Counted from the stretch's first letter, positions 25,626 to 44,292 are shown. The stretch is DNA of 44,292 bases from a virus (IMGVR_UViG_3300005573_001627), one strand, 5' to 3'. Program-made: numbers and translations. Notes: generated from the sequence alone by a model not told the origin.

Positions 25626-25626
25626 A

Positions 25627-26814: not shown

Positions 26815-27243
26815 ATGGTTAAAAATATTAATGTTATTCAAGATTTTAGAGATTTAGAAAATACTGAAAATGCAGATAAAACAAGACACTTATTTATAGA
26901 AGATAATGTTTTATATTCTTATGGTTATCACTATCCTTTATGTATTAAACTAAAAAATGAGAGTGGTTATTTTTCTTTTTTTATAAATTCTGATGGTTAT
27001 AGCAATACAACAGCAAGACATACAGGCGACTTAATAAGAACTATTACAAGATTAAATAATTTTAAAGAATTAAAAGAAGCAAAGAAAAAAGGAGAATATA
27101 ACCATATTTTTCTTTTATCTACTGAACAATTAAAAAATATTCTTAATGATATTAAGTATAAGTTAAATAAAACCATTTCTCAAGCGACTATAAACGATTT
27201 ATCTTTATTGGAATTGGAAAAAGAGCAAGAGGTTTTAAAATGA
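26815..27243 (+). CDS. Hypothetical virus protein (LYSYGYHYP / YSNTTARH motifs)
   Basis: YS-x-TT-x-x-H motif is common in small phage early proteins; ATGA coupling. Confidence 0.75.
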   Translation: MVKNINVIQDFRDLENTENADKTRHLFIEDNVLYSYGYHYPLCIKLKNESGYFSFFINSDGYSNTTARHTGDLIRTITRLNNFKELKEAKKKGEYNHIFLLSTEQLKNILNDIKYKLNKTISQATINDLSLLELEKEQEVLK

Positions 27244-28775: not shown

Positions 28776-28777
28776 AA

Positions 28778-28945: not shown

Positions 28946-28947
28946 AA

Positions 28948-29739: not shown

Positions 29740-29800
29740 CTATATATGTAGAAGAAAAGAAAATTATTATTTATAATCAATAATTCAATTTTATTGATGG

Positions 29801-29851
29801 ATATAAGAGAACTTTTGGTTTAAACTCCTTTTAAGCCAAACCCTCTTATAT
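29801..29851 (+). ncRNA. Stem-loop in the non-coding leader upstream of the Ku-like gene
   Basis: ATATAAGAG/CTCTTATAT (9 bp) plus TTTGGTTTAAA/TTTAAGCCAAA (11 bp with one U:G wobble), 5-nt loop. Confidence 0.4.
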
Positions 29852-29883
29852 TCTTTTAATTAAATGAAAAATGAACAAGCAAA

Positions 29884-30489: not shown

Positions 30490-30496
30490 AGCGAAA

Positions 30497-30619
30497 ATGA
30501 AAGGGAAATGTGAATTTTGCAAAGAAGTCGCAGAACTCCAAGAGCAAACAATAGACGAGGGAGAGAAAGTAATGATTTGCGAGGGTTGTGTTGAAAATCT
30601 GATAGATACCAATAGTTAA
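30497..30619 (+). CDS. Zn-finger microprotein (40 aa, CEFC...CEGC)
   Basis: Manual translation. Confidence 0.65.
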   Translation: MKGKCEFCKEVAELQEQTIDEGEKVMICEGCVENLIDTNS

Positions 30620-30620
30620 G

Positions 30621-30758
30621 ATGGGAAAGAAATTTGAAGTAATAAAACTGATACTTTCAATAATCCTTATAGGATTTATTTGTTATAACGAATATTTTAT
30701 TAAGGATAGTTTAAGGGCAATTTTTGAGATGTTGATTTTAATACTTTTATGGAAATGA
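30621..30758 (+). CDS. Small two-TM membrane protein (45 aa)
   Basis: Manual translation MGKKFEVIKLILSIILIGFICYNEYFIKDSLRAIFEMLILILLWK. Confidence 0.6.
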   Translation: MGKKFEVIKLILSIILIGFICYNEYFIKDSLRAIFEMLILILLWK

Positions 30759-30764
30759 AAGAAT

Positions 30765-30998
30765 ATGGGAATAGAAATAGATAGTTGTTTGAATTGTGGT
30801 TGTGTCGTTGATTTGAATAATGTAAAATCAAAAAATGTTTATAAAACTGATAAATGGAATAGTGGTTGTAACCTTAATGGATTTGAGTGTCCTGTTTGTC
30901 ATTTTATAATCTTAACAGATGTTGATGATTTATGGAAATTTGAAACAGGAGAAATAGAAAAGCAAGTTGGAAAAAACTATAAAATAAAAGATGAATAG
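30765..30998 (+). CDS. Zn-finger protein (CLNCG...CPVCH)
   Basis: Two CxxC motifs. Confidence 0.7.
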   Translation: MGIEIDSCLNCGCVVDLNNVKSKNVYKTDKWNSGCNLNGFECPVCHFIILTDVDDLWKFETGEIEKQVGKNYKIKDE

Positions 30999-31001
30999 AA
31001 A

Positions 31002-31172
31002 ATGGAGATAAAAATGATAGAAGAAGAAAAAATGAAAGACAAACGAGGGTTAAATACCTGTGCAAAGTGTGGGAATAGATTAAGTCATAGCACTTTCCGA
31101 GATGAAAATGGAGAGGTTGTAGGGTGGATAACCGAGTGTCTTAAATGCGATATTGTTTATGCAGAAGAATAA
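31002..31172 (+). CDS. Zn-finger microprotein (CAKCG...CLKC)
   Basis: Manual translation. Confidence 0.6.
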   Translation: MEIKMIEEEKMKDKRGLNTCAKCGNRLSHSTFRDENGEVVGWITECLKCDIVYAEE

Positions 31173-31173
31173 A

Positions 31174-31290
31174 ATGAGAAAATTCATTAATGATATTGGT
31201 TGTAGAGCAGAATTTGAAGATAGTATTTCCGAAGAAGAAATACAGAAAACATTAAGTTGGTTGGGCAAGAATTGGAGAGAAGAAAAATGA
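31174..31290 (+). CDS. Hypothetical microprotein (38 aa)
   Basis: Manual translation; ATGA overlap with the next gene. Confidence 0.5.
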   Translation: MRKFINDIGCRAEFEDSISEEEIQKTLSWLGKNWREEK

Positions 31291-31535
31291 AAGAAGAAAT
31301 ACAAGATTATGTCAGCGATAATATTCAAGAACTCCGAGAGGATTTTGTAAGCGAGAACTTAAATGAGTTTAACGAGTTTATGCAAGAAGAAATAGTTGAT
31401 GAGGATAGGACTTTTGATTATTGGAAAATGCAGTTTTGCGAGGAGAACGAGCAAGAATTTAATGAATTTTGCGAGAGTGCATTTCAAAATATGCAAAGTA
31501 AATTAGAAACAGAAAATAGTTTATTTATAAAATGA
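31287..31535 (+). CDS. Highly acidic small protein (possible DNA mimic)
   Basis: E/D-rich with regular aromatic residues; ATGA overlap with the ligase gene. Confidence 0.6.
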   Translation: MKEEIQDYVSDNIQELREDFVSENLNEFNEFMQEEIVDEDRTFDYWKMQFCEENEQEFNEFCESAFQNMQSKLETENSLFIK

Positions 31536-32344
31536 TAACTGAAAAAGATTTTATGTTGTGCGAGAGCATACGAGAAGAAGAATTGGATAATCCTAATATG
31601 GCTAATAATTGGATAGCCGAGATTAAAGAAGATGGAGAAAGGATTATTGCAGTTGTAATAGACAAAGACGCTATTTTGATTAATAGACGAGGGAAAATTT
31701 GTAATTTTCATTTTCAAGAAATAGTTGATGATTTAAAACAGATGGATAACTGCATTATTGATGGAGAAATAATAAGCGAAGATGGGAATTTTACAAAGTT
31801 ACAAAGGAGAGCATTAACAAAAGATATGACAAAATTAAAGCAGTTACAAACCGAGATACCTTTGAAATATATGGTTTTTGATGTTTTGAGAGTTGGAGAT
31901 AACTTACTTACAAGCAAACCATTAAAGGAAAGAAAAGAAGAACTGAAAAAATTATTTGAAAACAAACAATTTAAATATACTGAAATATTGGAGTGGGGAG
32001 ATATAAAGACGATATTTGCAAAGGCAAAGGCAGGAGATAACGAGGGGATAGTAGTAAAAAATCTAAATGGAGTTTATGAGCATAGAAGAAGCCGAGAGTG
32101 GCTAAAATGTAAATTCTTTTTGGAAAAAGATATTGTCTTTACAAAATATGAGGTTAATCCTAATGGGATTAGAGTAGAAAATAGTGAGGGGATAGCGTGT
32201 CAAGTCGCAGGGCAACAAAGCCAAGAAGTTAAAGAAATATTGGATAAAGAGGGCAAAGTAGAATTAACTATCCAATATTTAGAAGAAACAGAAGATAAAA
32301 AACTACGCTTTCCGAGTTATAAGAAAGTTGTATATTCAAAATGA
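31532..32344 (+). CDS. lig: Minimal ATP-dependent DNA ligase (adenylation domain + short OB domain)
   Basis: Motif I EIKEDGER, Ia NRRG, III IIDGEII, IIIa YMVFDVL, IV EGIVVK, V EWLKCK, VI KLRFPSY. Confidence 0.9.
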   Translation: MITEKDFMLCESIREEELDNPNMANNWIAEIKEDGERIIAVVIDKDAILINRRGKICNFHFQEIVDDLKQMDNCIIDGEIISEDGNFTKLQRRALTKDMTKLKQLQTEIPLKYMVFDVLRVGDNLLTSKPLKERKEELKKLFENKQFKYTEILEWGDIKTIFAKAKAGDNEGIVVKNLNGVYEHRRSREWLKCKFFLEKDIVFTKYEVNPNGIRVENSEGIACQVAGQQSQEVKEILDKEGKVELTIQYLEETEDKKLRFPSYKKVVYSK

Positions 32345-32352
32345 ACATAGGA

Positions 32353-32372
32353 AAAGTGTGTCATTATCGTAC
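32353..32372 (+). promoter_or_regulatory. Early motif copy E AAAGTGTGTCATTATCGTAC
   Basis: Followed by CTATATATG; ATG at 32397; last copy in the window. Confidence 0.75.
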
Positions 32373-32396
32373 CTATATATGTAGGAGAGAAGAAAA

Positions 32397-33524
32397 ATGA
32401 AACAAATAAATCACGAACAATTAAAGGAATTAGTAAGAAGATATTACCACAGCAAAATATCTTTAATGATATATGGAACTTTTGGAATAGGAAAATCCTT
32501 TGTTATCCGAGATGTAGCAAAAGAGATAGCCAAGACAAAAGAGAGGGAATTTATTGAGTGGAATAAAATTGATTATGCAAAGAAAAAAGAAATAATCAAT
32601 AATCCAAGCAATTACTTTGTTCTTGTTGATATTAGATTATCTGAATATGATAGTAGCGATATTAAAGGGCTTCCTGATTTCAAAGAGGAAAATATTATAT
32701 GGAAAAGTCCTTATTGGACACAGATTTTGGAAAAACCTGAAAGTGATGGCTTTTTGTTCTTTGACGAGATGAATTTAGCAACACCTTTGGTTTTATCTTC
32801 TTGTTACAAAATAATTTATGACAGGATTATAAACGAGGGTAGTATTTCTCCTAATTGGCTTATAATTAGTGCAGGGAATTTGGTTGATGATAAAGCATAT
32901 ACTAATGATATTCCTTTTCCTTTGAGAGATAGATGTGGAGAGGTAGAACTTTTAGAGCCGAACTATGATAGTTGGGTTAGTTGGGCTATTGAAAATGATT
33001 TGGATTACAGAATTATAGGATTTATTAATTTCTCTCCGAGTAAATTAAGAGTAGTTGATAATAATGATACACAGAAAAGCACAACACCGAGAAGTTGGGA
33101 AAGAGTTAATGCTTTGATTAAAGGAATAGAGGATTATCAAAAATTAGAATTAGTTGTAGGAACTGCGTTGGGAGAGGGAATAGCAAGAGAATTTATAGCG
33201 TTCTGTAAAATTAAAGATGTAGTGCAGTTAGAAAAGATTTTGATTAATCCACAGGAACTAAAGAAAATAACAGAAATAAGCAATAAATATTTTATAGTAA
33301 GTGCAGTTGCAGAACATTATGGAAAGGGTAATAAAGTTGATTTCAAGAAACTATTAGATATTTCAGAAGTATTAGACGAGATGGCTAATCCTGAATTTAT
33401 AACGCTGATGTGGAGATTAGCAGTAAAATATAATCCTACAAAATTCAGAAAGGACTTTCAAAGTAAGGAACTGAATAATCCATTAAGGGCAAAATATAAC
33501 AAATATCTTATGCCTAATGTATAA
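32397..33524 (+). CDS. MoxR-like AAA+ ATPase
   Basis: Walker A GTFGIGKS, Walker B LFFDEMN, sensor AGN, PLRDR arginine finger, TPRSWE. Confidence 0.88.
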   Translation: MKQINHEQLKELVRRYYHSKISLMIYGTFGIGKSFVIRDVAKEIAKTKEREFIEWNKIDYAKKKEIINNPSNYFVLVDIRLSEYDSSDIKGLPDFKEENIIWKSPYWTQILEKPESDGFLFFDEMNLATPLVLSSCYKIIYDRIINEGSISPNWLIISAGNLVDDKAYTNDIPFPLRDRCGEVELLEPNYDSWVSWAIENDLDYRIIGFINFSPSKLRVVDNNDTQKSTTPRSWERVNALIKGIEDYQKLELVVGTALGEGIAREFIAFCKIKDVVQLEKILINPQELKKITEISNKYFIVSAVAEHYGKGNKVDFKKLLDISEVLDEMANPEFITLMWRLAVKYNPTKFRKDFQSKELNNPLRAKYNKYLMPNV

Positions 33525-33837
33525 AATGGAATTTGAAAACAATTTTTGGAATAAGTTTTTGCTCTCAAATATTTTCAAGACAAGAGCAGAAATGAAGAAA
33601 GGATTAGTTGCTTATAGAGATGATGGAGATTTAATTTTTCTATTCAAAAATAATAAATCCTTTGGGGTAAAAGGGTGGAACACAGAAACAAAAGATTTCT
33701 TTTCAGATAAAGATATAGATTTGGCTTATATTCTCTTAACAAAAACACCAACAACAAAAATAATTAATCAAAAAAATTGGGAAGAATTTAAACGAGAAGT
33801 TGCTCTTAATGAGTTAATGAAAAATGAAACAGGATAA
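33517..33837 (+). CDS. Hypothetical protein with C-terminal ALxEL tag
   Basis: Ends WEEFKREVALNELMKNETG. Confidence 0.7.
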   Translation: MYKMEFENNFWNKFLLSNIFKTRAEMKKGLVAYRDDGDLIFLFKNNKSFGVKGWNTETKDFFSDKDIDLAYILLTKTPTTKIINQKNWEEFKREVALNELMKNETG

Positions 33838-34672
33838 AACAGGACAATTAGAAAGAACAAATACCTTAATCCAATTTGGAGAAGATATTTATTTGAAAGT
33901 AAAACCGATAGTTTTTGATGGAGAAGAATATGATGATAGAATAAATCTTAATGATACAATAACTTCTACGATAAAAAAGAAACGAGAGAAAATTTCACAT
34001 ATAGACAAACAAAAAGAAGAAGTTATTTTAAAAATCATAGGACAATTATATAATGGAGTATTAATCCCACAGGGTTTATCTTTTAGAAAAGGAAAAGTGT
34101 ATAAATATAAATGTCAATATGAAGTAGGCGTTGATACTATCCGAGATGAAGTTATGAAGAATATTCACGAGGTAGCAAAGAAATTAACCAAAAATAATTT
34201 AGATATTCTTGAATATGTTTTAAATAAAAAATATGTAAATCCTAATCCTCATATTCACAAAAATCAGTATGGTAATGATGATGAAAAAAGACAAAAGATA
34301 ATCAGATTTCCTGAATTAAAGATTTTGGAATTGGATAGAAATGATACTGCAACAAAGAAATTAAATATCCATTTCTTAAATGGAGTTACAATAGAAGATG
34401 ATGGAGATGTTAATTTCTTTTATGAATTTAAAGATGTAGATGGTTGTATAAAAACAGATTTTCCGAGTTTAGAAACAGATACTTTTGCAGGGCTTTATAT
34501 TAAATTTGAAAATGATATAAAACAAAATGCAGAAATATTTATTCAAGAACTAAATACAGAAATTCAAAATTCAGAAAAAGAAATTGAAGAAATTAAGGAC
34601 AAAGGGCAAAATCAATTAGCATTATGCGAGTTATTAAATACAGGAGAGGACAATTTAAAAAATGGTAGATGA
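33824..34672 (+). CDS. Hypothetical protein (282 aa) with C-terminal coiled coil and ALxEL tag
   Basis: Ends KGQNQLALCELLNTGEDNLKNGR. Confidence 0.8.
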   Translation: MKQDKTGQLERTNTLIQFGEDIYLKVKPIVFDGEEYDDRINLNDTITSTIKKKREKISHIDKQKEEVILKIIGQLYNGVLIPQGLSFRKGKVYKYKCQYEVGVDTIRDEVMKNIHEVAKKLTKNNLDILEYVLNKKYVNPNPHIHKNQYGNDDEKRQKIIRFPELKILELDRNDTATKKLNIHFLNGVTIEDDGDVNFFYEFKDVDGCIKTDFPSLETDTFAGLYIKFENDIKQNAEIFIQELNTEIQNSEKEIEEIKDKGQNQLALCELLNTGEDNLKNGR

Positions 34673-35951
34673 TGAAAGTAAATTAGCAGAAGAAAAACTT
34701 TTAAAAGCAAAGATTAAACTGCAAAGCAGAAGTCCATTTTTCAGTTATCTTGCTCTTTTCTTAAAAATTAGAAAAGCAAAAGAAAACGAATTACCTGAAT
34801 ATGCAGGAATTGGAGTAGATGTAAGAGGGATTTTATATTATAATCCAAAATGGATTAACAAACTTACAGATGAAGAAATGATAGGCGTTCTTTGTCACGA
34901 GATAGGGCATTTAGCACTTTTGCATTTAACAAGAAGAAAAAATAGGGAAAATGAAAAATGGAATATTTGCACAGATTTAGCAATTAATTCTATGTTAATC
35001 AAAAATGGATTTTCTTTAGCAAAAGGTGGGCTTATTCCTGATTATAACGATAACTTTACTTTTCCTGAACATATCTTTGGAAAAAAAGTAAGGATTACCG
35101 AGTGTCATAAAAAAACAGCAGAAGAAATGTTTGAGGAATTGCCTGAAATAAAAAAAGGATATAATAGAGGACAAAATGAGGGAGATGGGTGGGATAGTCA
35201 TAGTGAGGGAGAGGGAGATGATGATGGAGAGGGAAAAGGAAAAGATGGAAAAGGTGGCAAAGGTTTTGGAAGAAAATTAACTCCAGCAGAAATAAAAGAA
35301 TTAGAAGAAAAATGGAAAGACAGAATAGAAGAAGCGTTGATGAACAGCAAGACAAGAGGTAATGTTCCTATTGGTATGGAAAGATATTTTGAAGAATTAA
35401 GAAAAAGCCAAGTTAATTGGCGTTATATTTTACTGCGTTATGTTCAAGAATTATTACCAAAAGATATGACTTGGGCAAAGAAATCAAAGAAATCTGTGGC
35501 GTGTCATACTTATTTACCGAGTTATACAAAGGAGAAAATTGATATAATTGTTAATATTGATTTGTCGGGGAGTATAGGACAAAAAGAACTTACAGATTTT
35601 GTAAGCGAAATAGTAGGAATGGCTAAAGCATTTCAAACTTCTATCAATATGAGGTTACTTACTCACGATACTCAAATACAAAGCGATTTAGAAGTTAAAA
35701 ATGGAAATGTTGAAAAGATTAGAAAAATGGAAATCAAAGGTGGTGGGGGAACTGAATTTAATAGTAGTGTGGAATATATTAATGAAAAATATCCAAAATC
35801 AAAATGTTTGATTTGGCTTACTGATGGTTATGGAACTGAAATAAAAGAAAAAACAAGATACCCTATTATTTGGGTAATTTGTAAAGGTGGAAGTGATGAA
35901 GTAATCCATAACCGAGATAGGAGAGATAAAATAATATGGTTAAAGGATTAA
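34662..35951 (+). CDS. DUF2201-type HEXXH metallopeptidase-like + vWA protein
   Basis: PFFSYL, GVLCHEIGHL (HEXXH), IDLSGSI (MIDAS DxSxS), GGGGTEF, WLTDGYG. Confidence 0.88.
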   Translation: MVDDESKLAEEKLLKAKIKLQSRSPFFSYLALFLKIRKAKENELPEYAGIGVDVRGILYYNPKWINKLTDEEMIGVLCHEIGHLALLHLTRRKNRENEKWNICTDLAINSMLIKNGFSLAKGGLIPDYNDNFTFPEHIFGKKVRITECHKKTAEEMFEELPEIKKGYNRGQNEGDGWDSHSEGEGDDDGEGKGKDGKGGKGFGRKLTPAEIKELEEKWKDRIEEALMNSKTRGNVPIGMERYFEELRKSQVNWRYILLRYVQELLPKDMTWAKKSKKSVACHTYLPSYTKEKIDIIVNIDLSGSIGQKELTDFVSEIVGMAKAFQTSINMRLLTHDTQIQSDLEVKNGNVEKIRKMEIKGGGGTEFNSSVEYINEKYPKSKCLIWLTDGYGTEIKEKTRYPIIWVICKGGSDEVIHNRDRRDKIIWLKD

Positions 35952-36187
35952 TTAAATATAGAAATTGTAGGATTTATGCAGATTTTAAAATAAAAGGAAG
36001 TTTTGTAATCTGTAATCCTATAAAAATAGAAGAATTAGTTTTAGAAGAAAAAAAGAAACTTACATTTTGGGATTTTTTTTCAAAATGGAGATGGGAATGG
36101 GTTTGGAAAGAAGTAAAAAAATCGCAGTGGAATTTTTTTAAGATTATCCCTGAACATTTAATAGATGAAATTGTTACTTTAAAATGA
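35936..36187 (+). CDS. Hypothetical protein (83 aa, Trp-rich)
   Basis: ORF track. Confidence 0.6.
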   Translation: MVKGLIKYRNCRIYADFKIKGSFVICNPIKIEELVLEEKKKLTFWDFFSKWRWEWVWKEVKKSQWNFFKIIPEHLIDEIVTLK

Positions 36188-36413
36188 TATTTAAAAAACA
36201 GAAAGAAATTAATTTAGAAATTTTGCAGATGCTTTGTTATTTGGAACACGAATTAAATTGGTTAAAGACAAAAGTTGGAACTAATTACACTTTTAAAATT
36301 CGTGAGAAGGTTGAAAAATTAATTGAAAAGTATAAATTGGGGGGATACTAACACTCATACCGAGCAAAAATAAACGATTGTAGGGCTTTGTAGAGAGAAT
36401 TTTGAGGGCAAAA

Positions 36414-36536
36414 ATGAAGAAAAAATGGAAAGTTATTAGGATTTGGGAAGTTGAAGCAGAAACTATGGAAGAAGCGTTGGAACTCTCAAAAATCAAAAAA
36501 CACAAGCGAGTAACCATACAGGATATTTCAAAATGA
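36414..36536 (+). CDS. Microprotein (40 aa, VEAETMEEA motif)
   Basis: Manual translation; ATGA overlap. Confidence 0.6.
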   Translation: MKKKWKVIRIWEVEAETMEEALELSKIKKHKRVTIQDISK

Positions 36537-36910
36537 ATAAAGAAGATTTAAAACGAGTAGAGCAGGTAATTGAAGAACACAAAAATCCTTATCCAAAAGA
36601 TATTTTCTTGTGGACTAACAAAGAAAAACTGAAATTCAATAGAGGAAGATTTAATGAATTTATCTTTAATATTGTGGAGAATACAAAGAAAGATATTCTG
36701 AAAGAGATAAAAGAACGAGAAGAAGATATGAGTGAGAAAGTTATTATAAGAGATAAGAGTAAATGTTTTTTACTTATTATCCCTTTTTCTTCTTTGACAG
36801 AAACAGAACACCCTAAATTCTCTTGTTATGCAAGGAATGTTTTAGAAGTAGATGATGAGTATTATGATAAATTATTGAAAGAATATCGTAAATGGAAAAA
36901 AACAAAATGA
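36533..36910 (+). CDS. Hypothetical protein (NPYPKDIF motif)
   Basis: ORF track. Confidence 0.7.
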   Translation: MNKEDLKRVEQVIEEHKNPYPKDIFLWTNKEKLKFNRGRFNEFIFNIVENTKKDILKEIKEREEDMSEKVIIRDKSKCFLLIIPFSSLTETEHPKFSCYARNVLEVDDEYYDKLLKEYRKWKKTK

Positions 36911-37302
36911 AACCAATAGAACTTTTACCAAGATTAGAAGAACTGCAAAAACAAAAATATCAAGTTTATGGGATTACTACCGAAACGAAAATGTTAGAGC
37001 AGTATCAATATGATAATTGCGTAGTGGCTTATGTAAAAAATTGTTTAGGAACTATCTTTGTCATTAAAGGAAGCAAGATTTTTATGGGGTTTATACTTAC
37101 GGAGAAGAAGATAAGGGGTTGTTCATTATTCAGAATTAGTTTATGGGAAAGTTGTAAATTGCTTAATCATAAATGCGAGAAAGACAGATTACATATTATT
37201 AATCCTGAACTATGGGCGAGATTTCAAGATAAAATCGCTTTGATGGAATTGAATGATACAGAAAAAGCGTTGGATTATCGTGGGAGAAGTTATTATGACT
37301 AA
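36907..37302 (+). CDS. Hypothetical protein with near-C-terminal ALxEL tag
   Basis: WARFQDKIALMELND. Confidence 0.7.
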   Translation: MKPIELLPRLEELQKQKYQVYGITTETKMLEQYQYDNCVVAYVKNCLGTIFVIKGSKIFMGFILTEKKIRGCSLFRISLWESCKLLNHKCEKDRLHIINPELWARFQDKIALMELNDTEKALDYRGRSYYD

Positions 37303-37519
37303 AATTGATATTTGCGAATTTAGATGTTGGTGTGAATTTTGCAGAATAGGTATTGAAAAGGGAGAGCATTATTTGGATTTACGCAAAAAGGCGAGGAAAG
37401 GAGAAACAAGAGTAAATATCTGTGCAAGATGTTTAACAGAATTTGCAAAACAGATACCCAAACAAGATATTAAAGCAGTTGAAAATAGATTAGCATTAAA
37501 AGAATTGGAGAAAATATGA
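37295..37519 (+). CDS. Zn-finger protein with C-terminal ALxEL tag
   Basis: CEFC...CARC; ends VENRLALKELEKI. Confidence 0.75.
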   Translation: MTKIDICEFRCWCEFCRIGIEKGEHYLDLRKKARKGETRVNICARCLTEFAKQIPKQDIKAVENRLALKELEKI

Positions 37520-37659
37520 AGAAAGGAAAAAAAATTATTCGCTTTGGAGAAGTTAGAAATGAGTGTTGGAATTGTGGGAATTATCCAAGAGAGATTAATC
37601 CAAAGGGGGATAAAGGTTATTATAAATGTGAATTTTGTGGCGTGGTTATGCACAAATAA
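37516..37659 (+). CDS. Zn-ribbon microprotein (47 aa, CWNCG...CEFCG)
   Basis: Manual translation; ATGA overlap. Confidence 0.65.
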   Translation: MKKGKKIIRFGEVRNECWNCGNYPREINPKGDKGYYKCEFCGVVMHK

Positions 37660-37661
37660 AA

Positions 37662-37985
37662 ATGGAAGATAAACAAATAAAAGCAGAAATTGAAAGGCAG
37701 TTAGACGACTTTGAAAATTGGATTTCAAAAGAAATCAATAAAGAATTACAAGAATACAAAAAGAAAAATGATGGCGAGGGTGCAAATGCTTTTGTCAATA
37801 ATATTATGCTTAAGATGTTCTCATTATTAGTTAAAATGGAACAACAGGGCAAAAAGATTGGAAAAAGTGAAGAAGCAATAAAAAAAGTAATGATGAGTTA
37901 CCGAGAAGAAATCAAAAAATTTATTCCTGTTCTTAAATCTGAAATTGAAAAAATTAGGCAAAAAGGGGTGGCTTATATTGGTTAA
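37662..37985 (+). CDS. Hypothetical helical protein
   Basis: ORF track, internal ATG. Confidence 0.7.
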   Translation: MEDKQIKAEIERQLDDFENWISKEINKELQEYKKKNDGEGANAFVNNIMLKMFSLLVKMEQQGKKIGKSEEAIKKVMMSYREEIKKFIPVLKSEIEKIRQKGVAYIG

Positions 37986-37986
37986 A

Positions 37987-38418
37987 ATGGATTATGAATT
38001 ATGGATAAAAACTGAAATTTATAGGAATGATGATGGAGAATTAGAAAGAAAGAAGAAAGAATTTTATCTTGTTGCAGAAACCGAAGAAGAAAATAATAAA
38101 TTTCACGAGCATATGGCTGATGAGCAAGGTTATCAAGACTATAATTTTGAAGTTGATTTCAAAAGAATTGGAATTTTTGATGAACAGGCATTACTTAAAT
38201 TAATTCAACTTATCCAAAACAGATTAGCGTTGGAAGAATTAGAGAAAGGGATAGAGAAAGAAAAGAAATGTTATAATTGTGGAAAAATGACTACTGAAAA
38301 AATGTATTATTGGTATCACGCTGACCAAGATGATTTGGTTTGTAAGGAGTGTGCAAAGGAACTGAAACATACAGACACCTGTTATGCAGGTTCTTTGGTG
38401 TTAAAAAATGAAAACTGA
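37987..38418 (+). CDS. Hypothetical protein with internal ALxEL tag and C-terminal Zn finger
   Basis: IQNRLALEELEK followed by CYNCG...CKEC. Confidence 0.75.
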   Translation: MDYELWIKTEIYRNDDGELERKKKEFYLVAETEEENNKFHEHMADEQGYQDYNFEVDFKRIGIFDEQALLKLIQLIQNRLALEELEKGIEKEKKCYNCGKMTTEKMYYWYHADQDDLVCKECAKELKHTDTCYAGSLVLKNEN

Positions 38419-38571
38419 AATTGTTTTATGTGATAGTTGCAAAGAGCAGGTTGCAAAGCGAATATTAAAGATTTATTATCCAAGAACAAAGAAAAAGAAA
38501 ATAAGAAATTTGTTCAGATGATAATTAGATACTTAAAAGATAATGTGGCTTTAGAGGAGTTGGAAAAATGA
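38408..38571 (+). pseudogene. Apparently frameshifted small gene ending in an ALxEL tag
   Basis: Frame 1 MKTEIVLCDSCKEQVAKR...; shifted frame ...NIKDLLSKNKEKENKKFVQMIIRYLKDNVALEELEK* with ATGA coupling to the next gene. Confidence 0.45.
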
Positions 38572-38714
38572 AAAAGAAAAATTTTATTGTAGGTTGTGAA
38601 GAATTAGAAGATGGGATGACAATAAAAGCAAAGGATTTAGATGACGCAAGAGCAATAGTTAATGAAATGATAGATATTCACGAAATAGATGATGAGGGGG
38701 AATTTATTGATTAA
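38568..38714 (+). CDS. Acidic microprotein (48 aa, IKAKDLDDAR motif)
   Basis: Manual translation. Confidence 0.6.
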   Translation: MKKKNFIVGCEELEDGMTIKAKDLDDARAIVNEMIDIHEIDDEGEFID

Positions 38715-38715
38715 A

Positions 38716-39492
38716 ATGCCAAACTATGTTTATGGAACATTAAGCGTGTCAGGAACAAAAGGAGAAGTCCAAAAGTTTAAAGAATATGCTCAAAGCGAAG
38801 AAGAAAGTTTTGATGATATAACTATGAAAACTGAAAAATGGACACAAAAATTGGATATGAATAAATTTATTCCTTATCCAAAGAAATTCAAAGTCATAGA
38901 TGATAAAGTCAAAAAGTTTTATGAGAGTTACAAAAAAGTAAAACAAAAAGTAGAGAAAGGAGAAAAATTAACCAAGAAAGAGCAGAAACAGGCACGAGAA
39001 CTTGCTTTGTTAGAATTAGAAGGGAAAGGAAGCAAACCTCATTATAAAGGAAGCGATGGATTTAATAGTGGGGGTTATGAATGGTGTGTTCAGAATTGGG
39101 GAACAAAATGGAATTTTGGAGATGTTGAAATTCAGGATAAAGAAAACGCACTTGATTATAGTTTTACTACTGCGTGGAGTGTTCCTATGCCTATCTTATT
39201 CAAAATGAGTAAGATGTTTCCTAATTTAATTTTTAATTATTCTGGAGATGAAGAAAGCGAGGAATTTCAAGTAGAATATGAATTTAAAGAGGGCAAGATG
39301 AAAGTAATTGAAGAAAAAAATTGGAGTGATATTCAGATTGAGAAAATCCAAGATGGTGAAGATTTAGATTATTTTGAAGATGATGTTAAAGAAGAATTAG
39401 AAAAACATAAAGGACACAAGATTATTTTTGAAGATGATAAATTTATGTGCGTAAATTGTGCTAAAACAATTTGGGATACAAAAGCAAAATGA
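38716..39492 (+). CDS. DUF1281/YubB ferredoxin-like family protein with inserted ALxEL-bearing helix
   Basis: MPNY, GYEWCVQNWGTKWN, FTTAWSVP, FPNLIF are hallmark motifs; RELALLELEGK in the insert. Confidence 0.8.
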   Translation: MPNYVYGTLSVSGTKGEVQKFKEYAQSEEESFDDITMKTEKWTQKLDMNKFIPYPKKFKVIDDKVKKFYESYKKVKQKVEKGEKLTKKEQKQARELALLELEGKGSKPHYKGSDGFNSGGYEWCVQNWGTKWNFGDVEIQDKENALDYSFTTAWSVPMPILFKMSKMFPNLIFNYSGDEESEEFQVEYEFKEGKMKVIEEKNWSDIQIEKIQDGEDLDYFEDDVKEELEKHKGHKIIFEDDKFMCVNCAKTIWDTKAK

Positions 39493-39899
39493 CAAGACAA
39501 ACAGGAAAAAACTATTGTGGTTATGCGTATTGTGAATTAAAAAAAATTGATATAGATAAAGTTAAGGTTGTAAAAGATAAAGAAAATCAAAGAGTTTATT
39601 ATAATGGCGTATTGGTTGCAGGGTTGAATATGAGAGATGGAATGTGGGGTTGTACAGATTTCTTTAAATTTATCAAAGAGAAATGGATTTTATATTTCAG
39701 TAAAAAAGGACAAGAGTTTGATAAATTAATTAATCTTACAAAAGAACAAGAAACCCTTTGGAAACAAGATGGTTATCTTATAGAATTTGAAGATGATGAC
39801 AACTGCGAGGATTATATGGATTATGAAGGCACATTAGACGAAGCAAAAAGTTATGCTGATAGTTTCAGAAATAAAAATGGAGTTTATATAATAAAATGA
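39489..39899 (+). CDS. Hypothetical protein
   Basis: ATGA overlaps. Confidence 0.7.
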   Translation: MTRQTGKNYCGYAYCELKKIDIDKVKVVKDKENQRVYYNGVLVAGLNMRDGMWGCTDFFKFIKEKWILYFSKKGQEFDKLINLTKEQETLWKQDGYLIEFEDDDNCEDYMDYEGTLDEAKSYADSFRNKNGVYIIK

Positions 39900-40138
39900 A
39901 ACAGGAAATTAAAGAAAAGGAATTGAAATTAGAAAATTCTGACGAAGAAAATATCTCAATTTGTTATACAAGATATACTCTTAATTGGAAAGACGAAGAA
40001 GAAATTATTGTTACAAGAACTCAAAGGTATAGTGATTTAGTTGGAGAGCAAGATGATGATTTTGAGTTTGAGTTTGATAGGGATTTAACTGATAAAGAAG
40101 AAGAAGAAATAAAGAATTTTATTTGGAATTTAAAATGA
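39896..40138 (+). CDS. Acidic hypothetical protein (80 aa)
   Basis: ATGA overlaps. Confidence 0.7.
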   Translation: MKQEIKEKELKLENSDEENISICYTRYTLNWKDEEEIIVTRTQRYSDLVGEQDDDFEFEFDRDLTDKEEEEIKNFIWNLK

Positions 40139-40356
40139 ACGAAGAAGAAGAAACTAAAATAGAAGAAGAATTTAATGAACTTGTAGAAAATACTACTGAT
40201 GATGAATTTTGGAAATACACGAGAAGTTGGCTTTCAGTTGAAACCATTTTGGATATAATGAGAAATTGGGATATTAAAACCAAGAAAGAAGCAATAACAG
40301 AATTAAAAAAGATAATGGTTCGCTGTCCAAAATGCAAGAGTGATGGATGTCTATGA
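40135..40356 (+). CDS. Hypothetical protein (WKYTRSW...NWD) running into a broken Zn ribbon
   Basis: ORF; C-terminal CPKC lacks its partner CxxC in frame. Confidence 0.6.
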   Translation: MNEEEETKIEEEFNELVENTTDDEFWKYTRSWLSVETILDIMRNWDIKTKKEAITELKKIMVRCPKCKSDGCL

Positions 40357-40413
40357 AAGCGATTTACACCCTTTATTAAATTATAGATGTAATAATTGTG
40401 GAGAGTATTTTAA

Positions 40414-40650
40414 ATGGAAGAACACATAACCCTCTTTGAAGAAGAAATGCAAAGTTTGGAATTAGGAAAAGAAATTTGCATATATGAAAATGAAGATAAA
40501 GATATTACTATTTATCTCAAACAAGGCACGAATAAGGGTTGTGGGAAAAAAGAATTTGAGAGAGTTGAAGAAGATGTTTGGAATATCTGTGGAGAGAATG
40601 GATTTTTATGTGATGAATGTAAGGAGAGTTTAAATGCAGATGGAAAATAA
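40414..40650 (+). CDS. Hypothetical protein with C-terminal Cys cluster
   Basis: ORF track. Confidence 0.65.
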   Translation: MEEHITLFEEEMQSLELGKEICIYENEDKDITIYLKQGTNKGCGKKEFERVEEDVWNICGENGFLCDECKESLNADGK

Positions 40651-41254
40651 AAAATTAAGAGAAATCTTTGAGCATTTTACAGAAATGAGCGATAAGATTA
40701 TTGAAGATAAGAATAGAGGGGGGATAATGCCTGTATGTATTATAATCCAAGAAGATAAGGCAGATGTTATTGGTTTTCCTTTTGGTTCTTATGAAGAAAA
40801 GCGTATGGCGAGAGAGTTTTTATTTAAGGCTATTCTAAACCAAAAAACAAAAGCATATATTCTTATCCAAGACGCTAAAATGACTTGTGTGCAGAAATCG
40901 GATTTAGGAAAAGGTGGAGAAGTAAAAGATGTGGTTATGCGAAGTCTATATTCTCCCAATTTCAAAATAAAAGAGTTTGCTATTTATAATGAAGATGAAA
41001 GGAAAATAATAAGCAAGGAAAAGATATTTGACAGCGAAGAAAAAGATGGAATGGTTGATAAAGAAAAACCTCTCAAGATGGTAGATGAATGGGATTTATG
41101 GGGATTATGTTGGGATAAAGAGGATAATCCTCAATATAAAGAAGTCCAAGAATGGTATGAAAAATGGAAGCGAGATAATGCTGATAAATTTAGTGGGCTT
41201 AATGAAGATGGAAGCCCAAAAAGTGCAGGAGAAAAAAATGACAAAGCAAAGTGA
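40634..41254 (+). CDS. Hypothetical protein (206 aa)
   Basis: ORF track. Confidence 0.8.
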   Translation: MQMENKKLREIFEHFTEMSDKIIEDKNRGGIMPVCIIIQEDKADVIGFPFGSYEEKRMAREFLFKAILNQKTKAYILIQDAKMTCVQKSDLGKGGEVKDVVMRSLYSPNFKIKEFAIYNEDERKIISKEKIFDSEEKDGMVDKEKPLKMVDEWDLWGLCWDKEDNPQYKEVQEWYEKWKRDNADKFSGLNEDGSPKSAGEKNDKAK

Positions 41255-41414
41255 TTTTAAGAAATTACAGAAAGAAAATGAAAAGATAAGAAAAAAAATA
41301 GATGAAATCTTGCAAAGACATTTATCCACGATAGATGATGATTATTCAGATATTAAAGAGTGGATTGATGATTTGGTTGAAAATGAACTACAACAGGAGG
41401 AACTTTGTAAATGA
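41238..41414 (+). CDS. Hypothetical microprotein (58 aa)
   Basis: Internal ATG; ATGA overlap. Confidence 0.6.
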   Translation: MTKQSDFKKLQKENEKIRKKIDEILQRHLSTIDDDYSDIKEWIDDLVENELQQEELCK

Positions 41415-41602
41415 ATAGAGAAGAAATGATAGAAAAATTGATAGAAAAAGATATTGAAAATATCAAAATGAATATGGCTAATGGCGACTATGAGTTTTTA
41501 GATAATATATTAAGAGGAGAAGGTTTTACACCCTATAATCAATTAACAGATGAAGAAATTAAACAAGAATTTGACGAGGAAATTGAAGATGAACTGCCCT
41601 AA
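41411..41602 (+). CDS. Acidic microprotein (63 aa, GFTPYNQLTDEEI)
   Basis: ORF track. Confidence 0.7.
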   Translation: MNREEMIEKLIEKDIENIKMNMANGDYEFLDNILRGEGFTPYNQLTDEEIKQEFDEEIEDELP

Positions 41603-41762
41603 TTGTAATGAAGAAATGGAATATATTGAAACAGATAGTAGGCAAGAGTGGTTTGAAGAAACCTATGCTTGTAATAATTGTCATAAGAACTTTGTAAGGA
41701 GAGTTGAGTTTAAACCACAAAGCGAGTTAGTTGCGAGTGATGAACTTACTGAAATAAAATGA
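41589..41762 (+). CDS. Zn-ribbon microprotein (CPNC...CNNC)
   Basis: Two CxxC motifs. Confidence 0.7.
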   Translation: MNCPNCNEEMEYIETDSRQEWFEETYACNNCHKNFVRRVEFKPQSELVASDELTEIK

Positions 41763-41971
41763 TTTCAGAAAAAGAAAAAAGAAAACTTGCTTTAATGGAA
41801 TTAGAGGGAAAAAAGACAAAGTTTTACAAAATGAAAAAGATTTGGTTTGTTGAAGCAGAAGATATGCATAAAGCAATAGAAAAGATTAAGAGAAGAAAAT
41901 GTGACAATAGCGAATATACACAAATAACATTTAAAGAATATCTATGGGAGAAAAATGGGAGTTTATTATAA
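41759..41971 (+). CDS. Small protein with N-terminal ALxEL tag and VEAED motif
   Basis: EKEKRKLALMELEGKK. Confidence 0.7.
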   Translation: MISEKEKRKLALMELEGKKTKFYKMKKIWFVEAEDMHKAIEKIKRRKCDNSEYTQITFKEYLWEKNGSLL

Positions 41972-42374
41972 AGTTGCTGATTTCACAAATAAGAAGATTA
42001 TAGATGGGTATAGTGCTAAACTCGGAGAATGGGATGGAAATAGTTTTGACCAAGCAGTTGTCGTGAATTATCTTATTAACAATAAAGATTACCCTATTGA
42101 AATAAAATTTGTGGCAGATGAAACAGGAGAGTGGGATGATTGCGATGATGCAGAATTTGAAGATGTTACTGCTGAAATAATTTATAATATGTTTGAAGGT
42201 GGCTATTTTGCAGAATATAATAAGCATATTTGGAACTCAGAATATATTATGAAACATATATTAAGAAAATTTCAAGAAGCAGATATGGAAAATGATTTTC
42301 ACACAATCTGTGATAGAATACCTGAATTTGACGAGTTCAGAAAGAAAATGGTTTGCGAGGAGTTAGCAAGATGA
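41955..42374 (+). CDS. Hypothetical protein (degenerate tag KKMVCEEL at C-terminus)
   Basis: ORF track. Confidence 0.75.
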   Translation: MGVYYKVADFTNKKIIDGYSAKLGEWDGNSFDQAVVVNYLINNKDYPIEIKFVADETGEWDDCDDAEFEDVTAEIIYNMFEGGYFAEYNKHIWNSEYIMKHILRKFQEADMENDFHTICDRIPEFDEFRKKMVCEELAR

Positions 42375-42727
42375 GTTGGGATAATAAAATACCTTTTGAC
42401 AAAAATGGAAATTTAATGCATTATGCTGATAATAATTGGGATAAGGCAGATACTTGGAAAAATAATTATACATTTAAAGATATTTTACATATCAAAGATT
42501 ATGTAAGAGGGCGTTCAGCCGCCTATATTTATTTAATCTCAAAAGACAAAAAAGGATATCCTATGTTCTTGAAAGATTTTTTTGAGATGATACCAAAAGT
42601 TATAATCAAAAATGGAACTATCTATGGTAAATGGACTTTCTGCAAACGAGGGCAGAATTTTGGAATAAAATGGCAACAATCACGAGCATTTGTCCTGAAT
42701 GTTTTTCAAAGAAATTTTACCAATTAA
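42371..42727 (+). CDS. Conserved phage-type hypothetical protein (RGRSAA...YPMF...KRGQNFG)
   Basis: Motifs recognisable from uncharacterised phage proteins. Confidence 0.75.
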   Translation: MSWDNKIPFDKNGNLMHYADNNWDKADTWKNNYTFKDILHIKDYVRGRSAAYIYLISKDKKGYPMFLKDFFEMIPKVIIKNGTIYGKWTFCKRGQNFGIKWQQSRAFVLNVFQRNFTN

Positions 42728-42810
42728 AAGACAAAAGTTGGATTTGTAAGGAATGTGGGTTTAAATACAAAAATGAAAATAATACACTTTCAAGAAAAAA
42801 ACGCAGATAG
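42670..42810 (+). CDS. Overlapping Zn-ribbon microprotein (46 aa)
   Basis: Manual translation MATITSICPECFSKKFYQLKDKSWICKECGFKYKNENNTLSRKKRR. Confidence 0.55.
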   Translation: MATITSICPECFSKKFYQLKDKSWICKECGFKYKNENNTLSRKKRR

Positions 42811-43042
42811 ATATTTTGTCTTTAATTCTGATGAAGAATTAAAAAAGATATTCTTGAAGATTTTAAAGGAAAGGCAAAAGGAAGGATATTTTAATGAGGA
42901 TTATCTTCACAAAGAAAAAGCAACAGAATTAATCAAAAATGGAGAAAAATGTTCTGTTTGGGGATTAAGAGCATTTTTTAATCTCCGAAAAGATTATGAG
43001 TATGAAAATTATGATATTTCAGAAGTGGAGAGCATAAAATGA
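42773..43042 (+). CDS. Hypothetical protein (RKDYEYE motif)
   Basis: ORF; ATGA overlap. Confidence 0.7.
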   Translation: MKIIHFQEKNADRYFVFNSDEELKKIFLKILKERQKEGYFNEDYLHKEKATELIKNGEKCSVWGLRAFFNLRKDYEYENYDISEVESIK

Positions 43043-43530
43043 GTACACGAAGCAATATATTAATAACAGATGGACAAGAAAAACTCTTGTTTTATAAGCA
43101 TAGTGATGGATATCCTACAGGACAAGGCGTACTCTTAAAATATATGCAAGGAATTAAAGATAAAAAACTCCGAGATAATGTTTCGCAAAGTGCAGGGTGG
43201 CTAATAGTATATGGTTATCTTGAAAATCAAGAGGATAGAAAAGATTTCCCACCCTGTCCTGCTTTTGATTGGAAAGTAGGTTCATACGAACCAACTGATT
43301 TTTATGGAAGCGATATTGAATATTTTTATATTTGTGATATTAAAAAAATGCAGATAGAAGTTTTTTCTGCAAATTTCCCTTATGAAGATGAAGATAATAT
43401 CAAAAATCTGCGAGATAAAGAAGAAATAGAAAAAGCAATAAAGAAAGGGTGGTTAAGAAAATTAGGAATAATCAAAGATTTCAAAATGGAAAAGTTAAAA
43501 AGGATAGAGGAGAAAGAAAATGGAGATTAA
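43039..43530 (+). CDS. Conserved phage-type hypothetical protein (MSTRS...YKHSDGYP)
   Basis: Y-x-H-x-DGYP family motif. Confidence 0.8.
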   Translation: MSTRSNILITDGQEKLLFYKHSDGYPTGQGVLLKYMQGIKDKKLRDNVSQSAGWLIVYGYLENQEDRKDFPPCPAFDWKVGSYEPTDFYGSDIEYFYICDIKKMQIEVFSANFPYEDEDNIKNLRDKEEIEKAIKKGWLRKLGIIKDFKMEKLKRIEEKENGD

Positions 43531-43945
43531 AAAGAGAAAAGTTCAAACATATAAAGCACAAGAAGAAGAAATAGAAGTCTATGTATCTGAAGACAAACAA
43601 GAATTTAATAAAAAAGAAGATTGTTTAGCCCACGAAGAAGAATTAAAGATAATTAATTCAATAAAAAAGAAAGAATTAAACATAAACATTTATAACTTTC
43701 CAAGTATCACTTTTTGGTACGCTTCTAATGAAGAACAATTATCTTTTATATTAAAATATCTCGGATGGAATGGAAAATATCAACATACTTATCTTAATGA
43801 TAAAGGTAGTGGAATGTTAAATGTAGGGGATTGGATTGGAGTTCATATTGAGGATGGTGGCGACTATCCTGATGATTACTATTTTTACACTTGGGATTTT
43901 GTAAAAGAGAAAATAAGCAAGGGAATGGAAAACGCTGAAAAATGA
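43520..43945 (+). CDS. Hypothetical protein (141 aa)
   Basis: ORF track. Confidence 0.75.
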   Translation: MEIKKRKVQTYKAQEEEIEVYVSEDKQEFNKKEDCLAHEEELKIINSIKKKELNINIYNFPSITFWYASNEEQLSFILKYLGWNGKYQHTYLNDKGSGMLNVGDWIGVHIEDGGDYPDDYYFYTWDFVKEKISKGMENAEK

Positions 43946-44196
43946 AAAAACAATATTATATAAAAGGCATAATTCAAGATGGCGAGAATGAATATGAAAC
44001 CGACTTCTTGATGGAATGTGAAGAAAAAGACAAAGACAAAGAATTGCATAATTTCCTCAAAGACTTCTTTGGAGAAGAAACCAAACTTGAAGATGGAATT
44101 TATACAAGTTTTTTAAGAAGTATAAGGATAAGAGATATTACTGAAATTCCTAAAGAAGATTTTGAGATTTTAAAAAAATACATATTTTTAATTTAA
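43942..44196 (+). CDS. Hypothetical protein (84 aa)
   Basis: ATGA overlap. Confidence 0.7.
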   Translation: MKKQYYIKGIIQDGENEYETDFLMECEEKDKDKELHNFLKDFFGEETKLEDGIYTSFLRSIRIRDITEIPKEDFEILKKYIFLI

Positions 44197-44197
44197 G

Positions 44198-44292
44198 ATG
44201 AAAGAATATAAATTATTCAATACGGATGGAAAAACCTTTTTTGATTTCAGAAGCGAACCCGATAGCAGATGTGAGGGGTTTACACTGACTTA
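44198..44292 (+). CDS. Partial CDS running off the window
   Basis: ATG at 44198, open to the end. Confidence 0.5.
   Translation, partial: MKEYKLFNTDGKTFFDFRSEPDSRCEGFTLT

Follow-up and report, generated by a model that had tools for sequence, protein, structure and literature searches.

We found that a short peptide, [LVI]-A-L-x-E-L (hereafter the tag), recurs far above chance in small proteins of this uncultured large virus, and that it is a shared, portable peptide under selection at the protein level, carried by mostly unrelated proteins. All counts refer to the window, that is, the whole stretch of 44,292 nt that was analysed, out of a viral genome of about 169 kb. The best explanation, to which we give a probability of roughly 0.4, is that the tag is a portable helical recognition peptide with one virus-encoded reader, most likely the AAA+ ATPase together with the zincin-vWA (DUF2201) protein. 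The genes concerned are listed in Table 1.

Table 1. Candidate reader genes and tag-carrying genes in the window, in order of position
Feature	Coordinates	Strand	Tag	Details
142-aa carrier upstream of ATPase	26815..27243	+	LSLLEL 27199-27216	variant tag, followed by EK
AAA+ ATPase (MoxR-like)	32397..33524	+		candidate reader/motor; phrog_1297, E 1.4e-69
106-aa carrier	33517..33837	+	VALNEL 33799-33816	6 residues from end
282-aa "middle" protein	33824..34672	+	LALCEL 34616-34633	
Zincin-like metallopeptidase-vWA fusion (DUF2201_N + DUF2201)	34662..35951	+		candidate reader; Pfam 4.5e-35, 3.9e-18; phrog_1314
136-aa carrier	36892..37302	+	IALMEL 37234-37251	
Zn-ribbon protein	37253..37519	+	LALKEL 37490-37507	3 residues from end
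157-aa protein	37945..38418	+	LALEEL 38224-38241	between N-terminal part and C-terminal Zn ribbon
Broken Zn-ribbon gene	38408..38571	+	VALEEL 38545-38562	in C-terminal fragment
DUF1281/Api92-like protein	38689..39492	+	LALLEL 39001-39018	Pfam DUF1281_C match
70-aa protein	41759..41971	+	LALMEL 41786-41803	N-terminal tag
139-aa protein	41955..42374	+	MVCEEL 42348-42365	weak candidate tag, 2 residues from end

A six-frame search of the window returned exactly eight matches to [LVI]AL.EL, all on the plus strand between 33799 and 41803, and the extended consensus was [DNR]-x-[LVI]-A-L-x-E-L-E-[KG]. A preliminary description of this DNA had listed these eight copies and two weak ones (27196 and 42342), and all ten peptides translate at the coordinates it gave. 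Its placement of five of the eight at or near the C-terminus was also borne out (2, 3, 6, 12 and 16 residues from the end), and the remaining three sit further in, 55, 58 and 157 residues before the C-terminus. The tag in the window is not strictly C-terminal in the manner of ssrA: six copies end 2-16 residues short and the others are internal or N-terminal, the settings comprising C-termini, one N-terminus, a domain junction and an inserted loop. As had been described, the copy at 38539-38562 belongs to a frameshifted gene; 38437-38571 is the tail of this truncated gene, and the two halves of the orthologues in the relatives L002 and L003 match two different frames. Of the copies called weak, the one at 27196 is a true variant, because the L003 orthologue of its carrier (2386-2832, 45% identical) has LALMELEKE at the equivalent place, and consequently not every copy lies downstream of the ATPase gene. 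The copy at 42342 stays weak; a search for an orthologue of the 139-aa protein that could confirm it found none, and its sequence matches the relaxed form found in relatives.

The frequency of the tag was then compared with chance. The results showed 8 copies of AL.EL in the window against 0.13 expected (Poisson P 2e-12), and this pattern ranked top among all gapped patterns with four fixed residues. Within-protein shuffles gave a mean of 0.01-0.03 copies with a maximum of 2, and 225 of 240 re-orderings of the tag residues were absent, none except the observed order occurring more than twice. In 80 other virus loci (361,658 aa) used as a control, AL.EL was no commoner than expected (8 copies against 12) and the strict [LVI]AL.EL occurred 0 times; close relatives carried 9 tag copies against 0.29 expected. 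Enrichment is thus confined to the observed residue order.

Conservation of the tag had been attributed to the protein rather than the DNA, and this was confirmed, as codons differ between copies and between orthologues. Orthologous tags are identical across 3-6 synonymous changes; between the Zn-ribbon protein at 37253..37519 (88 aa as the ORF is listed, likely start M15 at 37295) and its L003 orthologue, all eight residues of NRLALKEL are identical despite 6 synonymous codon changes. The peptide is thus retained while its codons change, indicating that selection acts on the protein. Other orthologous tags vary in sequence, those of the 136-aa carrier reading VALMEL (L002), VGLIEL (L003) and CMLKEL (L090) and that of the 106-aa carrier VALDEL (L002). 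These results bear on a chance origin or a DNA-level signal, such as a DNA repeat or the ribosome-binding region of the next gene, which we consider almost negligible in probability. In five of ten copies the end of the tag does lie no more than 10 nt from the start codon that follows, GGAG-like strings occur in some (e.g. TTG GAG), and the tail found in another virus, L072, looks constrained by a Shine-Dalgarno-like GAGGTGG that it overlaps immediately before the next start codon. However, three copies lie far from any start codon, the Ala-Leu part is unlike a Shine-Dalgarno sequence, and synonymous sites are free to vary; for this window the enrichment, the codon variation and the residue-order test refute such an origin.

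The carriers comprise at least nine proteins from at least seven families, and with the tag masked they showed no mutual similarity except between orthologues and within one paralogue pair. The claim that they are unrelated accordingly holds for most of them and fails for the proteins at 33517 and 36892, because these are paralogous over a whole domain. In the DUF1281/Api92-like protein, the tag lies inside a K/E-rich insertion of ~35 residues private to this virus clade, which canonical DUF1281 members (155-190 aa; alignment A9) do not have, indicating that the tag is portable. The 282-aa protein, which in this clade is always encoded between the ATPase and the DUF2201 protein, retained the tag position in all 12 lineages of alignment A5; four of its columns are invariant and seven nearly so, and L265 and L270 belong to these. 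An AF2 model of this protein (pLDDT 83), which had no match to known folds, places the tag in a predicted C-terminal helix (262-279).

The ATPase has an AAA+ fold and a Walker A motif with invariant GxxGxGKS. By sequence it was assigned neither to Pfam AAA_3/AAA_5 nor to the solved MoxR proteins: Pfam AAA families stayed below cut-off (AAA_5, 13.8 bits against 22), and a PDB profile search gave weak P-loop matches only. In a fold search with its predicted AF2 structure, NorQ (9qh4) came first (E 4e-6), followed by RFC, ORC and Lon (8e-6 to 5e-5) and many further AAA+ matches. Its vWA-domain partner is encoded alongside, DUF2201 lying 1.1 kb downstream in the same gene run, and the arrangement is the same in all relatives. 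In the partner, DUF2201_N and DUF2201 scored above the Pfam cut-offs (122 and 66 bits). The intact DxSxS reported earlier was verified: both the MIDAS (DxSGS/T/D; D300, S302, S304, T364 and D388) and the HExxH (H79, E80 and H83) are intact, with all these residues invariant. The AAA+/peptidase-vWA pair occurs in hundreds of phages (619 records) and also in archaeal viruses; to our knowledge, no function has been demonstrated for it.

The link between the tag and this pair is circumstantial but replicated, and the pair is a candidate reader only. As the preliminary description had stated, each of the two genes that separate the ATPase gene from the vWA gene is tagged. Two distant viruses repeat the arrangement with tags of their own. 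In L007, 22 of 65 ORFs end in Phi-M-V-E-x-L-COOH, with the tag at the very C-terminal residue; all 14 strict copies of this 144.5-kb record fall in a 19-kb stretch surrounding the pair, and the two genes that separate ATPase and DUF2201 carry the tail. In L072 (108.6-kb record), 17 ORFs directly downstream of DUF2201 end in F-x-L-R-W-x-COOH, and the gene between the pair is likewise tagged. With lengths of about 70-100 aa throughout, the L007 and L072 carriers could be cryptic paralogues. On the other side, ~75 of ~80 other pair-bearing viruses have no shared tail within 10 kb of the pair, indicating that the pair does not require the tag, and the LSLLEL carrier 5 kb upstream of the ATPase gene counts against the link. 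The clustering near the pair could also reflect a mere block of small accessory genes.

We infer that one partner reads the tag and that this partner would be the ATPase/DUF2201 machine; the later fate of tagged proteins is likewise a proposal. In such a mechanism, the sequence [DNR]-x-[LVI]-A-L-x-E-L-(E-[KG]), which is present on proteins of at least seven unrelated families, would be recognised by a single virus-encoded reader. This reader would most likely be the MoxR-like ATPase plus the zincin-vWA protein from the same gene block, and together they would act on the tagged viral proteins as one group, to recruit, remodel or clip them. A broader form, which we put forward only tentatively, is that the DUF2201 pair is in general a tag-directed machine and that each lineage, including this virus, L007 and L072, marks a private set of proteins with a co-evolving address peptide. 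The docking of an invariant Glu on the MIDAS, as first suggested, was not supported. vWA MIDAS sites bind peptides that contribute an acidic ligand (PMC7159879, PMC13036017), and by comparison with Rea1/midasin and its partners Ytm1 and Rsa4, integrin I-domains and NorD, an acidic residue with hydrophobic surroundings could serve as the sixth metal ligand (PMC13036017). Here, however, sister lineages have K/R, S or N in place of this Glu while their MIDAS and HExxH stay invariant, and there is therefore no covariation.

Several other readings of the tag were weighed. It is possible, though on balance doubtful, that the tag docks another common partner, either a host hub (clamp, protease, unfoldase or polymerase subunit) or a different viral protein, its location near the ATPase and vWA genes being incidental. 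Short motifs aimed at host hubs are common among viral proteins, the evidence for a real, portable, selected motif serves this reading equally, and both the untagged majority of pair-bearing viruses and the one carrier outside the operon favour it. Against it, the tags differ wholly between lineages that share the pair, which is unusual for host-hub motifs and, we infer, fits a co-evolving virus-encoded reader better than a conserved host hub; in the two whole records, L007 and L072, tags occur only around the pair. The ssrA tag read by ClpX, the PIP-box read by PCNA, the bacterial clamp-binding motif QL[SD]LF and the MIM helices read by the Vps4 MIT domain are likewise short peptides on unrelated proteins, of 5-10 residues, with one reader each and often near a terminus. 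The present tag fits none of them in sequence, is not strictly terminal and is confined to one virus lineage; neither the PIP-box (Q-x-x-[LIM]-x-x-[FYW]-[FYWL]) nor QL[SD]LF matched it, the aromatic pair being absent from every copy and a Q preceding the tag only in the 282-aa family.

A tag without any common reader, being simply a favoured structural element that arose by convergence or by spread of a small module, appears unlikely; such an element might be the beginning of a short amphipathic helix that follows a K/E-rich one, or a helix for self-association. It would agree with the predicted helical tag that, in the 282-aa protein, comes after a long K/E-rich helix, with the relaxation of the tag to Phi-Phi-Phi-x-x-L in distant orthologues, and with the degenerate hydrophobic pattern that is also common near C-termini in control viruses. 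Against it, Ala, which makes up only 3% of proteome residues, is present in 8 of 9 copies, a single residue order out of 240 is enriched, control proteomes have no enrichment, and the structural settings vary, including an N-terminus and an inserted loop; nor would a purely structural helix require precisely this sequence. Similarly improbable, as a sub-case of reading by the ATPase/DUF2201 machine, is that the tag is a proteolytic site (e.g. L-x-E|L) for the DUF2201 HExxH domain, where cleavage would take off short tails or split domains apart. The intact, invariant HExxH fused to the vWA domain and the variable placement of the tag (close to the C-terminus, at the N-terminus or between domains) suit cleavage, and zincin peptidases tied to vWA-MoxR systems do process small variable proteins, releasing conserved C-terminal peptides (PMC7159879). 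A second precedent comes from group 2.2 jumbo phages (Iyer et al. 2021, PMC7824862; phrog_1297, phrog_1314), which have the same two-gene module of DUF2201_N + DUF2201 beside an AAA+ ATPase, proposed to act in virion assembly with processing of structural proteins. That work describes no shared tag, and in contrast the tagged proteins here are small and non-structural-looking, and the structural-gene block of the window has no copy. The tag of L007, moreover, is the very C-terminus, leaving nothing to remove.

No comparable shared tag was found in the literature. A close likeness is to the modules that process peptides in the vWA-MoxR ternary conflict systems (FxSxx-COOH, RxD and acidic types; Kaur, Burroughs, Iyer, Aravind 2020, PMC7159879), which also combine a MoxR-type ATPase, a vWA protein and a zincin-like metallopeptidase with variable small proteins whose conserved portion is a short C-terminal or near-C-terminal peptide. 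In the virus studied here, by contrast, the peptidase and vWA domains form one fused protein, the many carriers belong to unrelated families and contain folded domains, and the tag, unrelated in sequence, may be internal or N-terminal. VMAP, radical-SAM/SPASM, AP-ATPase and effector components were not found among the 22 window ORFs scanned (Pfam or PHROGs), and, set against FxSxx-COOH systems, in which a zincin peptidase goes with a small, fast-diverging precursor bearing a conserved C-terminal peptide, the window does have a zincin domain, but its carriers, of 70-282 aa, are folded and not dedicated precursors.

The tag beside the pair provides a concrete, testable list of candidate clients together with a candidate recognition element. 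If the link is true, it would explain the gene pair and supply a compact, portable tag that comes with a reader, through which a virus handles many unrelated proteins as one group; a tag-directed machine would amount to a virus-encoded protein-addressing system new to the literature. Even with another reader, the tag brings together at least nine proteins of unassigned function as one functional set. Another MoxR/vWA pair, likened here by description, is that of the archaeal Acidianus two-tailed virus (ATV; Scheele et al. 2011, reviewed in PMC4124505), with p618 as the MoxR ATPase and p892 as the vWA protein. It is without a peptidase domain (PMC7824862) and no shared client motif has been reported for it, and ATV p618 binds several viral proteins (PMC4124505).

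All ten peptides listed in the preliminary description translated as reported and in place. A six-frame scan of the 44,292-base window, part of a metagenomic contig of about 169 kb, returned exactly eight matches to [LVI]AL.EL, all on the plus strand between 33799 and 41803. For enrichment we took the plus-strand proteins encoded beyond 24.8 kb (6,167 aa), where alanine makes up only 3% of residues. The results showed eight copies of AL.EL against 0.13 expected (Poisson 2e-12); no other gapped pattern of four fixed residues came within three orders of magnitude of this score. Within-protein shuffling left a mean of 0.01-0.03 copies (maximum 2). In a composition-keeping null of 240 re-orderings of the tag residues, 225 had no occurrence, and more than two copies were seen only for the order found in the tag and for equivalents that overlap it. 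As a control, we took 80 other virus loci with 2,071 proteins (361,658 aa); there AL.EL did not rise above background (8 copies, 12 expected), and no strict tag occurred. The shuffles, re-orderings and control loci bear out the claim that the tag exceeds the expectation for K/E/L-rich helices, ruling out an artefact of composition or amphipathic helices.

Extended by its flanking positions, the consensus reads [DNR]-x-[LVI]-A-L-x-E-L-E-[KG]. Five copies lie at or near the C-terminus, as described, ending 2, 3, 6, 12 and 16 residues before it; another lies between the N-terminal part and the Zn ribbon of its carrier. The remark that a hydrophobic residue often stands at position -4 was roughly right (6 of 9 copies). 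The carriers had been called otherwise unrelated. With the tag masked, we found similarity only among orthologues and between the 106-aa and 136-aa proteins, which are paralogues over their whole domain; the claim stands apart from this pair, and the carriers form at least seven families. The copy at 27196 in the 142-aa protein, previously called weak, proved genuine: this protein is 45% identical to the product of 2386-2832 in the related locus L003, which carries LALMELEKE at the same place. The window thus holds nine copies, one of them upstream of the ATPase gene, and one weak candidate. PIP-box, clamp-binding motif and MIM were rejected on sequence, and the tag is not known to fit any docking motif, ssrA included.

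Features of the window, with the tag forms of carrier families
Feature	Coordinates	Tag in the family	Remark
142-aa protein	26815-27243		upstream of the ATPase gene
AAA+ ATPase gene	32397-33524 (+)		
106-aa protein	33517-33837		paralogue of 136-aa protein
282-aa middle protein	33824-34672	QLAL[CA]EL	
DUF2201 zincin-vWA gene	34662-35951 (+)		
136-aa protein	36892-37302	V[AG]L.EL	
88-aa Zn-ribbon protein	37253-37519	NR[LI][AV]L[KQ]ELEK	Met15 at 37295
157-aa protein	37945-38418		
Broken Zn-ribbon gene	38408-38571	[VL][AIV]LEEL	tail ORF 38437-38571
DUF1281 protein	38689-39492	L[AI][LI].ELE[GA]	tag in interior
70-aa protein	41759-41971		tag at residues 10-15
MVCEEL	42348-42365		weak candidate
FLFDF	25168-25182		
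FLKDF	28001-28015, 42566-42580, 44053-44067		

Two gene models needed comment. The tail ORF of the broken Zn-ribbon gene belongs to a frameshifted, truncated gene, whose N- and C-terminal remnants lie in different frames; intact orthologues of 92-103 aa were found at 12289-12567 of locus L002 and 13546-13857 of L003. Orthologues of the 88-aa protein begin at the position of Met15, and this ORF probably encodes about 74 aa in reality; with that start, its overlap with the 136-aa gene disappears.

The codons of the tag copies differ, confirming the earlier remark. NRLALKEL of the 88-aa protein is identical in its L003 orthologue despite six synonymous differences, and the tag of the 282-aa protein is kept in five contigs with 1-4 synonymous differences each. 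Among orthologues, the amino acids are constant while synonymous sites vary freely, and for three copies the nearest downstream start codon is 150-450 nt away. An origin as a DNA repeat or ribosome-binding site was therefore rejected for the window.

The close relatives came from metagenome assemblies, with DUF2201 proteins 60-78% identical to that of the window. No close relative was found in IMG/VR (best identity 36%), among INPHARED phages by DNA, or in GTDB genomes. In a more distant locus (L093, DUF2201 53% identical), 7 of 23 C-terminal tails contained L.EL in an unbiased test, whereas interior control windows never gave more than 4. The degenerate tail [LIVMC][AIVMLCG][LIVM]..[LI] gave no separation (12% of proteins in clade relatives, 4-9% in control viruses), and because this pattern does not discriminate, tails read by eye in loci L097-L112 were discarded as evidence, L093 excepted.

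We aligned 26 DUF1281/Api92-like proteins. The results showed that canonical members (155-190 aa) lack a K/E-rich segment of about 35 residues that occurs only in this virus clade and bears the tag (ELALLELEG, EIALCELEG, KLILIELEA and similar forms), indicating that an insertion brought the tag into a fold that already existed. The comparison is the strongest evidence that the tag is a portable module rather than part of one domain. The clade's DUF1281 proteins (38716-39492 in the window, and relatives) also have a C-terminal extension of about 70 residues with a terminal CxxC...W motif, which canonical members lack.

Every member of this clade encodes a protein of about 250-300 aa between its ATPase and DUF2201 genes. 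In an alignment of 12 lineages, L265 and L270, the first and last leucines of the tag, were among four invariant and seven nearly invariant columns. Distant lineages carry LLMVAEI, QLVYAEL, LLMIKEL or YLLVASL, which makes Phi-Phi-Phi-x-x-L the general form, of which the Ala/Glu version is specific to the window's sub-lineage. The AF2 model of this middle protein is a confident alpha+beta structure (pLDDT 83). In it, a long K/E-rich helix and a glycine precede a short C-terminal helix (262-279), of which the tag forms the beginning; confidence fades past the tag. Searches of PDB and AFDB clusters gave no informative match and no named fold. The middle protein could be either a third subunit or the main client.

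The DUF2201 protein combines a DUF2201_N zincin and a DUF2201 vWA domain in one chain. Across the clade the HExxH motif is invariant, as are DxSGS, T and D of the MIDAS, which is intact as described. The ATPase belongs to phrog_1297, and its Pfam AAA matches are below threshold; NorQ is the best match to its model, with RFC, ORC and Lon close behind. The label "MoxR-like" thus rests on the top fold match together with the vWA partner, and not on a family cut-off. DUF2201 relatives occur in 619 phage records, and the pair is widespread. In jumbo phages, where it has been described, it was proposed to act in virion assembly and processing (PMC7824862), and ATV p618/p892 is the studied archaeal-virus analogue, in which p618 binds several viral proteins (PMC4124505). 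Our literature search found no functional work on DUF2201 in phages. Prediction of a complex of ATPase, DUF2201 protein and 88-aa carrier scored 0.59, 0.13 and 0.19, with the median below the mark, and counts neither way.

The preliminary description had linked the tag to this pair. The tag is indeed present in both genes that separate ATPase and DUF2201, and the majority of the remaining copies fall in the 7 kb downstream. In L007 (IMGVR_UViG_3300030616_000506, 144.5 kb, GC 28%), whose DUF2201 protein is 36% identical, 22 of 65 ORFs in 1-21239 have [DE]-E-Phi-M-V-E-x-L-COOH as their exact end (such as DEVMVELL); with tails removed, BLAST showed almost all to be unrelated. There too, the two genes lying between the pair carry the tag, and 14 of 14 strict copies in the record fall within 19 kb around the pair. 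The stop codon of tagged L007 ORFs usually overlaps the next start as ATGA. In L072 (IMGVR_UViG_3300017917_001562, 108.6 kb), 17 small ORFs in 9568-18071 end in D-x-x-x-F-x-L-R-W-[SAV]-COOH, all of them in a stretch of 6.4 kb immediately downstream of DUF2201; a variant of this tail is also present in the gene between the pair. Because both results came from whole-record scans, they are independent of locus choice. Three lineages thus have three different tags, each in and around the pair, though the L007 and L072 carriers, all 70-100 aa, could be cryptic paralogues. The proposal that the tag glutamate is a MIDAS ligand was not supported: sister lineages have K/R, S or N there while the MIDAS is unchanged, and no covariation was found. 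Overall, the preliminary interpretation is partly supported, with circumstantial but replicated support for the link between tag and pair.

We consider it possible, at a probability of about 0.4, that the motif serves as a short, helical address tag and that the AAA+/zincin-vWA machine encoded by the virus itself reads it; this machine would recruit or remodel the carriers or clip them at or near the tag. A cleavage site would be a sub-case of such reading, and we regard it as improbable. A different reader, host or viral, is somewhat unlikely; about 75 other pair-carrying loci with no shared tail within 10 kb of the pair speak for it, whereas the divergence of the tag from lineage to lineage would be expected of a viral reader that co-evolves with it more than of a conserved hub in the host. 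A purely structural element without any reader would have to survive the enrichment, residue-order and control results, and is as improbable as the cleavage site. Chance or a DNA-level signal is extremely unlikely given the Poisson value, the free synonymous sites and the copies remote from starts. In L072, however, the tail codons TTG AGG TGG TCA TGA contain a Shine-Dalgarno-like GAGGTGG 2 nt before the overlapping ATGA, and AGG is nearly always used for the arginine; a portion of the tail may therefore be DNA-constrained, and protein and DNA constraints may coincide.

The nearest described systems are the peptide-processing modules of vWA-MoxR ternary systems, whose zincin peptidase has as substrates small variable proteins that share a conserved C-terminal peptide (PMC7159879). 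The case of the window differs in being viral, in having peptidase and vWA domain within one protein, in its numerous, folded, unrelated carriers, and in a tag that may also stand internally or at the N-terminus. Our literature search found no paper describing a shared tag beside a viral ATPase/DUF2201 pair. The tag was confirmed with corrections; in kind it stands with peptide tags and vWA-MoxR peptide systems, and the pair is a candidate reader.

Other motifs also recur. The gene block 24800-44292 is rich in small Zn-ribbon proteins, and CxxC patterns are strongly over-represented in it and in L002 and L003 (for example, C.NC, 6 against 0.12 expected). The pentapeptide FLKDF/FLFDF occurs in four different proteins, as three copies plus one, against only 0.09 expected.
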